Assembly (NCBI RefSeq): GCF_058153355.1
Contig: NZ_CM177019.1
Strand: one strand, 5' to 3'
DNA: 64,000 bases
In this document: positions 10,127 through 13,492 of the stretch, piece after piece
Layout of the letters: each line of letters starts with the position of its first letter
Numbering within the stretch: the first letter of the stretch is position 1
Program-made: the position numbers and the translations under genes
The notes under the pieces: model-generated
What the model saw: the letters and a program-made list of their open reading frames with translations, nothing else
Databases searched by the model: none
Told to the model about the DNA's origin: nothing

Positions 10127-10148
10127 TTGGTTTACAGGAAGCGGTAAA
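10127..10148. repeat. gix-like recombination site (right), TTGGTTTACAGGAAGCGGTAAA
   Basis: Inverted repeat of 13182..13203 (21/22 bp); contains the GGTTTACAGGAA half-site characteristic of Gin/Cin/Pin crossover sites. Confidence 0.75.
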
Positions 10149-11085
10149 TCAGGCTTCTGGCGCATTACAGAAAAACCAGAACGGTGCAGATATTCCAGGA
10201 AAAGATACCTTCACCAAAAATATTGGTGCCTGTCGCGCATATAGCGCATGGGTGGATATTGGTGGCGATAGTCAGGTCTGGACAACTGCGCAATTTATTT
10301 CGTGGCTGGAGAGTCAGGGAGCATTTAACCATCCTTACTGGATGTGCAAAGGCTCATGGGCTTATGCAAATAATAAGGTCATTACAGATACAGGTTGCGG
10401 AAATATTTGTCTTGCAGGTGCTGTGGTGGAAGTTATTGGCACCCGCGGCGCAATGACCATACGCGTTACCACGCCGGGCACGTCCAGCGGCGGCGGAATC
10501 ACTAACGCTCAATTCACTTATATTAATCATGGTGATGCTTACGCTCCTGGCTGGCGACGAGACTACAACACGAAAAACCAGCAGCCTGCATTTGCTTTAG
10601 GGCAAACAGGAAATACCGTCGGAAACGACAAAGCCGTTGGCTGGAACTGGAATAGCGGGGTCTATAACGCAAATATTGGTGGCGCAACAACATTAATCCT
10701 CCACTTCAATATGAATACGGGGAGTTGCCCTGCCGTACAGTTCCGTGTGAATTACAGGAACGGCGGTATTTTTTATCGTTCAGCGCGTGATGGTTATGGA
10801 TTTGAGGCTGGCTGGTCAGAGTTTTACACCACAACACGCAAGCCATCAGCGAGAGATGTTGGCGCATATACGCAGGCAGAATGTAACTCAAGGTTTATTA
10901 CAGGTATTCGCCTTGGTGGTCTGTCATCTGTTCAGACATGGAATGGTCCCGGCTGGTCTGACAGGTCAGGTTATGTTGTTACCGGTTCCGTTAACTCAAA
11001 CAGAGATGAACTAATTGATACAACTCAGGCAAGGCCAGTTCAGTATTGCATTAATGGGACGTGGTATAACGCGGGGAGTATTTAA
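10149..11085 (+). CDS. alternative (currently silent) tail-fibre C-terminal cassette, no own start codon
   Basis: Begins at the gix site with GLQEAVNQ, homologous to GLQETVNR in the expressed fibre; ends ...RPVQYCINGTWYNAGSI like the expressed fibre C-terminus. Confidence 0.7.
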
Positions 11086-11087
11086 CG

Positions 11088-11621
11088 ATGATGCACTTAA
11101 AAAACATTTCTGCTGGTAATCCTGAAACAAAAGAGCAATACCAGCTAACAAAGCAATTTAACATCAAATGGCTTTATACAGAGGATGGGAAAAACTGGTA
11201 TGAGGAACAAAAGAACTTTCAGCCTGATACGTTGAAAATGGTCTATGACCACAACGGCGTTATTATTTGTATTGAAAAGGATGTTTCAGCAATTAATCCG
11301 GAAGGCGCAAGCGTCGTTGAGGTTCCTGATATTACAGCAAATCGCCGGGCTGATATTTCAGGTAAATGGATGTTCAAAGATGGCGTAGTGATAAAGCGAA
11401 CTTATACCGGGGAAGAGCAGAGGCAACAAGCGGAAAATGAAAAGCAAAGCCTGCTACAGCTCGTCAGGGATAAAACCCAGCTGTGGGACTCACAGCTACG
11501 GCTGGGCATTATTTCCGACGAGAATAAACAAAAATTAACCGAGTGGATGCTCTATGCGCAGAAGGTCGAATCCACAGACACCTCCAGCCTGCCAGTAACG
11601 TTTCCCGAACAACCAGAATGA
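11088..11621 (+). CDS. tail fibre assembly protein (Tfa), partner of the silent cassette
   Basis: 177 aa, MMHLKNISAGNPETKEQYQL...; paralogue of the 11650..12177 gene; conserved Tfa N-terminus. Confidence 0.8.
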   Translation: MMHLKNISAGNPETKEQYQLTKQFNIKWLYTEDGKNWYEEQKNFQPDTLKMVYDHNGVIICIEKDVSAINPEGASVVEVPDITANRRADISGKWMFKDGVVIKRTYTGEEQRQQAENEKQSLLQLVRDKTQLWDSQLRLGIISDENKQKLTEWMLYAQKVESTDTSSLPVTFPEQPE

Positions 11622-11649
11622 GAGAAGGCCCGATATCGGGCCTTAATTT

Positions 11650-12177
11650 TTACTCAGGTTTTTGTGGCCATTCGGGCTTTGCCGTATCCACACGGCTGAT
11701 CAGAACACTGTAGCGTTCCCATGCTTCCAGTCGTGTGCGTTCCTCGTCTGTTGCCATATTCAGCCTGACAGCGCGTTCCAGCGGCTGGATGACTGATTCA
11801 GCTTCGGAAAGTAACTCGGCCTTTTGTGATTCGGCCTGTTGCTGCTGTTCGTCTGCTGTATAAGTCCTCCTGACCACCGCTCCGTCCTTAAACATCCACT
11901 TCCCTGAATCATCGGCACGACGGTTAGCTGTTATATCGGGGATTTCAACGACGCTAAAACCTTCAGGATTAAGCGTGGAGGCATCTTTAGTGACGGCGAC
12001 AATAATATTATTTTCGTCGTAAACAATCTTTATTGTATCCGGCTGAAAGTTCTTCACTTCCTCATACCAGTTTTTTCCGTCCTCAGAGTAAAGCCAGATA
12101 ACTCCGTGTTTCTTTGTTAACTCATACTGTTCTGGTGTTTTAGCATTACCCGCTTTTATGTTCTTTAAGTGCATCAT
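11650..12177 (-). CDS. tail fibre assembly protein (Tfa), expressed orientation
   Basis: ORF 11650..12210; start at [20 protein letters not shown], two bases after the tail-fibre stop. Confidence 0.8.
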
Positions 12178-12178
12178 A

Positions 12179-13492
12179 TTAAATACTCGCCACATTATAC
12201 CAGGTGCCATTTATATACTTTTGCACTGGCCTGTAATGAACGCCTGCAATATTATCGGCAGAGTTTTTTCCGGTATCCTGTACGTTAATCCCCGTCAGTA
12301 CATAGCCTGACGGGCACTGGAAATTCCATGTTTGCCAGTTATTCACACCATAATATTGCTGTGAGCCAAGCCGGACATCTTTCACATATCTGGAGTCAAA
12401 ATTGCCATAATTGCCGGGAATAACTTGCGCACCACAAAGCCAGTTACCGTTATTATCCATGTACGCCTGACCATCGGTGCCATTGGCTGTCCTTGAGTTA
12501 TTAATCATGTAGATGCCAAATTGCTTATTCCCCAGCCCACCAATTACGAATTTACGGTCGGTATGGTCCTGGCGAAGCAATGCCTGCGCACCATCGTTGG
12601 ATACCGCATTACGGCCCAGAATAACATTCTGGTCACGCATATGAATCCACATGCCGGTACTACTGTTAATTGCAAAACGGTTTGCAAATATATCCCCTGT
12701 AACATCAAGACCATGCCCCATGCTTATCCGGCCAGTTCTGAGATTAAGCGTAAAGGGGCGTAGTGGCCCTATATCACCATTTTCCCCCTCATTCTCTCGT
12801 GTAGGGATGATATGCAGGCATTCTTCAGAACGACGAAAAATGGCACCAAAAGATGAATTAAATATCCTCAGTGCATTGACTGTCGATATTTTCACTTCAC
12901 TGCTGAAAAGGGCTTTCACAAGAACATACAGAGCATCCCATTTAAGATTCATCAGGTCTTTAACCCGGCCGCCAGTGAGGTGGTGTCTCCATTTGAAATA
13001 TTCATTACCGTTATCCGCCGTTTCAAACCACATGTAGGAATCGGTGTCTGCATCCGAATCATTTTTAAATCCAATCTTCGCCCAGTCAGTATTCCGAATC
13101 CAGGCAAGGATTGAGTCGTTTTCAAAAGTAAGTCCACCGGACAAGGTATCGCCATTTTTTTGCACAGCGTTCCTGGCCCGGTTTACCGTTTCCTGTAAAC
13201 CAAGGTTTTCGAGAGCCGTTTTCACCGTGCCATCCAATTTGATATCGCCAAACGGATTCTTGCGGCTTAACAGCAGCGCGCGAAGTGCGGTAATCAACTG
13301 ATCGTGCTGCCCTTTCTCCAGGCTGGCACCGGATGCCTCCACCACGCTGCAGAGTTCTTCCTGCAACATATCAAAGTAGTCATCATCCAGATCGGTGGCA
13401 GGTGTGCCGGTCTGGGGGTTACCACGGGTAAAACCGTTCTTACCCGCGCCGAACTTATCCTTCTGCGCGGTTTTAGTGTCTATGCGATGCAT
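12179..13492 (-). CDS. tail fibre protein (constant N-terminus 13204..13492, variable C-terminus 12179..13181)
   Basis: 437 aa; contains [49 protein letters not shown], strongly resembling P2 gpH; ends ...[12 protein letters not shown]. Confidence 0.85.
13182..13203. repeat. gix-like recombination site (left), inside the tail-fibre gene
   Basis: Reverse complement TTGGTTTACAGGAAACGGTAAA; encodes the GLQETVN constant/variable junction. Confidence 0.75.

Follow-up and report, generated by a model that had tools for sequence, protein, structure and literature searches.

An invertible tail-fibre segment in a prophage at prfC that has lost its invertase and the distal end of a putative Fis enhancer

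Does a tail-fibre switch come to rest when its invertase gene is destroyed, or can it still be turned by an enzyme from elsewhere? The question is raised by a prophage in a 64,000-nucleotide stretch of contig NZ_CM177019.1 (NCBI RefSeq assembly GCF_058153355.1), referred to throughout as the window, in which an invertible segment with two tail-fibre cassettes lies beside the remnant of a pin-type invertase gene. The locus is a decayed member of the well-known Din family of switches (Gin/Cin/Pin/Hin) and involves no new mechanism. The dependence of orphan segments with truncated invertases on enzymes supplied in trans is also already known (PMC4134206). What is new is that a 79-base pair (bp) deletion in the invertase gene also appears to deprive the cis-acting Fis enhancer of its distal end. 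A preliminary description of the locus had left the switch either frozen or dependent on an invertase in trans. Of these two, the evidence leans towards a frozen switch, given the lost distal enhancer end, while in relatives with a retained enhancer trans service does occur. We consider it likely, though by no means assured, that the segment is locked in its present orientation, or at best flips very rarely.

In a working system of this type, a serine invertase binds two 26-bp sites and is activated by a Fis-bound enhancer lying within the first ~90 nucleotides (nt) of the invertase gene. The 3-kb segment then flips, joining the constant N-terminus of the fibre to one or other tip, each of which has its own assembly chaperone. 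In the window the sites and both cassettes are intact, whereas the invertase gene has been destroyed and the distal end of the enhancer homologue removed. The present orientation is predicted to express a P2-type/Mu-S-like fibre with a U-like chaperone, and to leave a Mu S'/U'-like cassette silent. The prophage is collinear in gene order with annotated relatives in JNU, strain 104, FAM21845 and CFSAN064036, and the same layout is found at different insertion sites (prfC in JNU and FAM21845, dusA in strain 104, icd in CFSAN064036). The remains of the invertase gene and its enhancer are as follows, with fragments numbered by nt of pin and amino acids (aa) of its product.

9827–9939, minus strand: sequence that in intact genes follows the pinE stop codon immediately on its 3' side, joined directly to pin codon ~66 by the large 3' deletion (alignment with strain 104 pinE and the JNU and FAM21845 stubs)
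9940–9993, minus strand: invertase fragment, pin nt 147–200 (aa 50–67, ...GDTLVVWKLDRLG), 100% identity by tblastn, out of frame with the 5' fragment
9994–10060, minus strand: invertase 5' fragment, pin nt 1–67 (aa 1–22), with R7C, N14K and T15I (tblastn and alignment)
10025–10039, minus strand: putative proximal Fis core (GTATCAACAAATGAC, pin nt 22–36), about 95 bp from the centre of the left crossover site

A small serine invertase gene of the expected kind (~185–195 aa, with a catalytic domain, an E-helix and a C-terminal helix-turn-helix) is missing next to the segment. When intact PinE was used as a tblastn query, only aa 1–22 (10060–9995) and aa 50–67 (9992–9939) were matched, and no second invertase was found in the 64-kb window. 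Three lesions account for the remnant. Alignment with intact pinE revealed a 79-bp deletion of pin nt 68–146 (junction 9993/9994), which causes a frameshift; a second deletion (junction 9939/9940) has removed about 360 bp, taking everything between codon ~67 and the stop codon; and the surviving N-terminus carries the substitutions R7C (MLIGYVRVS to MLIGYVCVS), N14K and T15I. In the N-terminal motif of serine recombinases R7 is the conserved arginine, corresponding to Arg8 in the resolvases. With these changes the adjacent invertase is dead. The preliminary description had recognised a ~200-bp remnant with an internal deletion and a frameshift, which tblastn and the pinE alignments bear out, but it had counted this as the single lesion and had taken the catalytic N-terminus to be intact, and neither view survives the finding of R7C in the catalytic motif together with N14K, T15I and the second deletion.

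Loss of the protein is one matter and loss of the enhancer another. Wild-type Din-family invertases need a Fis-bound enhancer in cis for any activity (PMC3798978; PMC2724282). This enhancer spans 65 bp, carries one Fis site at each end and lies about 100 bp from hixL (PMC3798978). The Cin enhancer is annotated at cin nt 19–90 in the GenBank record of P1, and cin, gin and pin align without gaps across this stretch. The genes gin and pin and the JNU stub all have two conserved G-N13-C cores, at nt 22–36 and nt 71–85 and 49 bp apart; the register of these cores in pin is our own assignment and is putative. In the window the distal core (pin nt 71–85, GTGCAGGATGCGAGC in intact genes) has gone, as the 79-bp deletion starts at nt 68. 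The enhancer homologue is thus cut at nt 67, with its proximal two-thirds (pin nt 19–67) kept, and what remains of the 5' coding region appears to lack a complete cis enhancer, which would have two terminal Fis sites.

The importance of this loss can be gauged from related segments which flip beside dead invertase genes. The pin stub of CFSAN064036 keeps nt 1 to ~140 and adjoins a DUF262 gene. The native left junction of this locus, and the same junction flipped in silico, were searched against complete E. coli genomes; the native form was found at full length in 16 genomes and the flipped form in 17, with identities reaching 100% for each. Two near-clonal chicken-meat isolates from one study, 22-245 and 22-250, have 6,636-bp loci which differ solely by an exact inversion between the sites (locus positions 3335–4866), here in an e14-type fibre segment next to a pin stub of 144 bp. 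RecA-type recombination was rejected as the cause of this inversion, the identical repeat being just 14 bp and the inversion exact at the sites. Because the identical repeat is so short, the difference between the two isolates reflects site-specific recombination by an enzyme encoded elsewhere. A comparable case is the Phi4 segment of EC958, which lies beside a truncated invertase and was seen in the flipped orientation in PacBio reads, the flipping being credited to the invertase of another prophage (Forde et al., 2014; PMC4134206). PinQ of the Qin prophage and PinR of Rac invert the P segment of e14 (PMC12529663). The stubs of the flipping relatives that were examined (CFSAN064036-type, 22-245 and 22-250) all retain the full nt 19–90. 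In the prfC lineage with the same 3' deletion as the window no flipped example was found, this lineage comprising few genomes with heterogeneous cassettes; JNU and FAM21845 share one orientation.

The window, unlike these flipping relatives, has lost the distal end of the enhancer, and a locked segment is therefore favoured over one flipped in trans. The loss would prevent invertases supplied in trans from acting here. In K-12, deletion of pinE locks the P segment despite the presence of pinQ and pinR (PMC12529663), which fits with loss of the enhancer along with the gene. Several points weigh against a lock. Low expression of pinQ and pinR could explain the K-12 result instead of enhancer loss. 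Fis sites are degenerate, and the sequence joined by the deletion has a G at −7 and an AT-rich centre, so partial enhancer function may persist; the register of the putative Fis cores is, moreover, an assignment. Enhancers can act in cis from some way off, and one that has escaped recognition may lie nearby. Laboratory variants of these invertases that act independently of Fis exist. Finally, the orientation state is known from a single sequence of this genome.

The strongest rival to a locked segment is that the switch still works, served by an invertase from another prophage (a Pin, Gin or Cin homologue) and acting through the remaining proximal Fis site, a fortuitous one or none. A pinE-like gene of at least 80% length is present in at least 39% of complete E. 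coli genomes, and a trans enzyme in the source genome is therefore plausible. Both crossover sites are intact, their outer halves occurring in strain 104 beside an intact pinE and their inner halves in Mu; flipping next to truncated invertases is documented by the genomes and isolates above as well as in published work (PMC4134206; PMC12529663); and the silent cassette has not decayed. Set against this are the deletion of the distal end of the enhancer homologue, the need of wild-type Din invertases for Fis and the enhancer in cis, the full nt 19–90 kept by the stubs of the flipping relatives and the lack of an invertase within 64 kb. We regard continued flipping in trans as rather unlikely, though it deserves to be taken seriously.

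The crossover sites and cassettes of the segment are as follows.

10115–10140, plus strand: left 26-bp crossover site, TTTTCATAAACA TT GGTTTACAGGAA, central TT at 10127–10128
10129–11085, plus strand: silent fibre-tip cassette (Sv'-like), PHROG tail fibre match
11088–11621, plus strand: silent assembly gene (U'-like), 177 aa, phrog_136, E 1e-74
11650–12177, minus strand: expressed assembly gene (U-like), 175 aa, phrog_136, E 9e-81
12179–13201, minus strand: variable part of the expressed fibre (Sv), PHROG tail fibre match
12179–13492, minus strand: expressed tail fibre, whole, 437 aa
13190–13215, minus strand: right 26-bp crossover site, reverse complement CTCTCGAAAACC TT GGTTTACAGGAA, central AA at 13202–13203
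13204–13492, minus strand: constant N-terminal fibre part, 96 aa, outside the segment, of the e14/SfV-type backbone

A repeat search gave inverted arms of 54 nt at 10122–10175 and 13155–13208, 74% complementary, and both crossover sites overlap them. The two are inverted 26-bp Din-family sites with conserved 12-bp half-sites, the inner halves and the central dinucleotide being the same in both, and they enclose a segment of 3.08 kb. A generic scan for AAAC-N-NN-N-GTTT found no further crossover site in the 64 kb. The gix-like sites of the preliminary description thus stand up to careful alignment, with inner halves equal to Mu gix, and the positions it had given for the segment ends, 10127 and 13203, fall on the two central dinucleotides.

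Both sites are hybrid, with an outer half and central TT of e14 type and an inner half (GGTTTACAGGAA) of Mu/P2 type. The left outer half (TTTTCATAAACA) is e14-type, and the right outer half falls in the constant part of the fibre gene. Together with the central TT, the outer halves match the e14-type sites (TTTTCATAAACG TT and CTCTCGAAAACC TT) of strain 104, JNU, FAM21845 and CFSAN064036, being identical to, or 1 nt off, e14-type sites that work with intact PinE. The inner halves are identical to the gix of Mu/P2 and not to the e14-type inner half, GGTTTGGGAGAA. Homology to Mu/P2-type records ends inside the right site, and from the left site to the start of pin the window resembles its e14-type relatives and not the P2-like one. 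The hybrid junction was found in neither orientation among 5,426 complete E. coli genomes, every match breaking at the crossover site. As the sites switch from e14-type to Mu/P2-type sequence within themselves, the entire 3-kb cassette pair was swapped exactly there. A tentative suggestion, which we make jointly with that on stub retention given at the end, is that the pair was imported from a Mu/P2-type phage through exchange mediated by an invertase at the sites and not by homologous recombination. Exchange of fibre modules at such sites has been discussed by Sandmeier (1994, as cited in PMC4134206).

The cassettes themselves are in good order. The segment holds two opposed fibre tips, each with its own assembly gene, as had been proposed from the open reading frames (ORFs), and a single shared constant part is in frame with the tips both ways; flipping the segment in silico gives an in-frame alternative fibre of 415 aa. 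No stop codon interrupts any of the four cassette genes. The fibre and assembly proteins were identified through PHROGs (matches spanning E 1e-75 to 1e-115), NCBIfam holding no models for them. At the protein level, the silent Sv' is 96% identical to the S' variable part of Mu, and the silent U' is 98% identical to that of Mu and matches its counterpart in a P2-like prophage at 100%. The expressed Sv is 95% identical to the P2-like copy and 67% identical to Mu Sv, and the expressed U-like assembly protein is 89% identical to Mu U. Neither the exact expressed fibre nor the exact flipped fibre, both of them fusion proteins, is on record.

The silent cassette lacks stops and frameshifts, with a ratio of non-synonymous to synonymous substitution (dN/dS) of about 0.1 against Mu and the P2-like relative, a value which reflects divergence that may predate any lock. 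From its undecayed state it follows only that either the lock, if any, or the acquisition of the cassette was recent. A lock, if there is one, is probably recent, because the silent cassette has not decayed. Read from an in-frame ATG at 10087, upstream of the crossover site, the silent cassette also makes up a free-standing ORF of 332 aa (10087–11085, plus strand). This ORF resembles e14 stfE, whose inversion products reportedly block adsorption of phage T2 (PMC12529663).

A second rival to a simple lock is that the host now keeps the locus as a source of stand-alone fibre-tip proteins, like the StfE/StfP chimeras of e14, with the orientation fixed by selection. The ATG upstream of the crossover site, with the ORF that it opens, would allow this, and inversion-made chimeric Stf proteins of e14 do block T2 adsorption (PMC12529663). 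However, the prophage is apparently complete, from integrase and terminase through portal and capsid to sheath, tape measure and baseplate, the cassettes are of Mu/P2 type and are not the tested e14 StfE/StfP pair, and the proposed expression or defence role is drawn by analogy. We consider this very unlikely. That the invertase lesions are assembly or sequencing artefacts in a gene that is really intact has nothing in its favour beyond the existence of just one sequence, and is extremely unlikely, as the 3' deletion and R7C/N14K/T15I each recur in independent complete genomes and a clean loss of 79 bp is not typical of consensus error.

We return, then, to a segment that is probably locked and to how its invertase gene came to its present state. 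Its lesions differ in history. The 3' deletion is common to JNU, C41, FAM21845 and about ten more complete genomes, in e14-type and lambdoid prophages at prfC. R7C, N14K and T15I are common to the e14-at-icd stubs (CFSAN064036 and others) in at least 25 genomes, at 99.2% identity. The 79-bp deletion was present in none of the 5,426 complete E. coli genomes, and its 31-nt junction was absent from all GTDB species representatives. The stub is a mosaic, its 5' 67 nt like the e14-at-icd lineage and its 3' part like the prfC-site prophages. A recombination joint with an e14-at-icd stub was considered as the source of the 79-bp deletion and rejected, as that stub runs past nt 67 with normal pin sequence.

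Other stubs of this kind occur. A lambdoid prophage at prfC in strain 19451123 also has a pin stub with the same 3' deletion as the window. In E. coli PEC1003 (attB lambda region, 4892–5086) there is an independent invertase stub of 195 nt that keeps the 5' end of the gene. It adjoins a Mu/P2-type invertible segment in a lambdoid prophage, next to a diguanylate cyclase gene.

The prophage as a whole sits in Escherichia-type chromosome (~97.3% identity of the flanks to K-12 by alignment), with the following landmarks.

Left flank, in order: yjjI, osmY (6773–7456, minus strand), prfC (7771 to about 9360, minus strand), then the prophage
9293–9337, no strand assigned: attL core repeat, imperfect, within the 5' end of prfC; left boundary of the prophage
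9578–9826, plus strand: DinI-like gene (NCBIfam PRK10597 DinI, E 3e-20), last prophage gene before the invertase stub
48846–48890: second copy of the imperfect ~45-bp repeat; right boundary of the prophage (alignment to K-12)
Right flank, in order after the prophage: yjjG, rimI, holD, rsmC, fhuF

An exact-repeat search for attL and attR had given none, and the prophage ends were located by alignment to K-12, whose prfC–yjjG DNA matches 6274–9337 and 48849–51315 of the window with an overlap of 42 bp. The prophage is ~39.5 kb long and sits in the first codons of prfC, at the 5' end of the gene. It supplies prfC with a new 5' end (about 9338–9360), and the original 5' fragment (about 48850–48915) is stranded at the right end, adjoining the integrase gene (47395–48618, minus strand). 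Genes for an integrase, large terminase, portal, HK97-type capsid, sheath, tape measure, and Mu-like hub and baseplate are all present, and this is apparently a complete myovirus prophage of the e14/SfV type, with an HK97-like head and a Mu-like contractile tail and baseplate. Its gene order is that of the type: DinI-like, pin, invertible segment, fibre, ymfQ, baseplate J/gp47, gp46, V and hub, continuing with tape measure, sheath, HK97-type capsid, portal, terminase and integrase. The DinI-like gene, between the prophage end and the invertase stub, is kept there in related prophages at prfC, dusA and other sites, and a 'DinI-like family protein' is annotated at the equivalent place in JNU, strain 104 and 19451123.

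Among known systems, the closest in prophage backbone are the e14 P segment with pinE in K-12 and its counterpart at dusA in strain 104, which share the order DinI-like, pin, segment, fibre constant part, ymfQ, baseplate J, gp46 and V. Their outer half-sites and central TT are identical to those of the window or 1 nt apart, and the surviving parts of pin are about 95–99% identical. They differ from it in that the window invertase consists only of two short fragments, in their inner halves (GGTTTGGGAGAA there, whereas the window has GGTTTACAGGAA and two cassettes of Mu/P2 type) and in their segment of about 1.5–1.9 kb, against 3.08 kb here. The cassettes point instead to the G segment of Mu with gin, whose gix is identical to the inner half-sites of the window and whose invertase gene has the enhancer homologue at the same position, and to the segment of P2-like prophages (e.g. 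FDAARGOS_943), with which the whole window segment shares 94% DNA identity. Neither Mu nor P2, however, is matched by the outer half-sites, the constant part of the fibre or the remainder of the prophage, and the central dinucleotide is TT instead of TC; compared with Mu, the expressed Sv is only 67% identical and a functional gin is lacking in the window.

In its state of decay the locus is nearest to Phi4 of EC958, which has Mu/P2-type sites (GGTTTACAGGAA), a segment of ~3.1 kb and a severely truncated adjacent invertase (PMC4134206). The Phi4 stub lacks only the C-terminal helix-turn-helix and keeps the 5' enhancer region, and its inversion has been seen, whereas the window has also lost the distal enhancer end and is known from one sequence. 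The C segment of P1 with cin and the H segment of Salmonella with hin share the recombinase family, the layout of the 26-bp sites and a Fis enhancer in the first ~90 nt (PMC2724282). The cin gene of P1, however, is oriented towards the segment, with its 3' end overlapped by cixL, and Hin flips a promoter, not fibre cassettes.

Phage host range is set by invertible fibre segments, and in cryptic prophages such segments can also yield proteins that block other phages (PMC12529663). Being able to tell which copies still flip helps to predict prophage host range and to avoid mis-annotating fibre fragments. The locus described here shows that an invertase gene can be lost in two steps which differ in their consequences: loss of the protein can be rescued in trans, and loss of the enhancer contained in the 5' part of the gene probably cannot. 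With the same reserve as for the import of the cassette pair by an invertase, and jointly with it, we suggest that E. coli prophages may retain the 5' stubs of dead invertase genes as carriers of the Fis enhancer. If so, stub retention would keep orphan fibre segments flippable by the invertases of other prophages, and the window would represent an enhancer knocked out in nature, the point at which such a switch truly ends. In a chromosomal setting, the locus provides a natural test of whether the Fis enhancer is required in cis.

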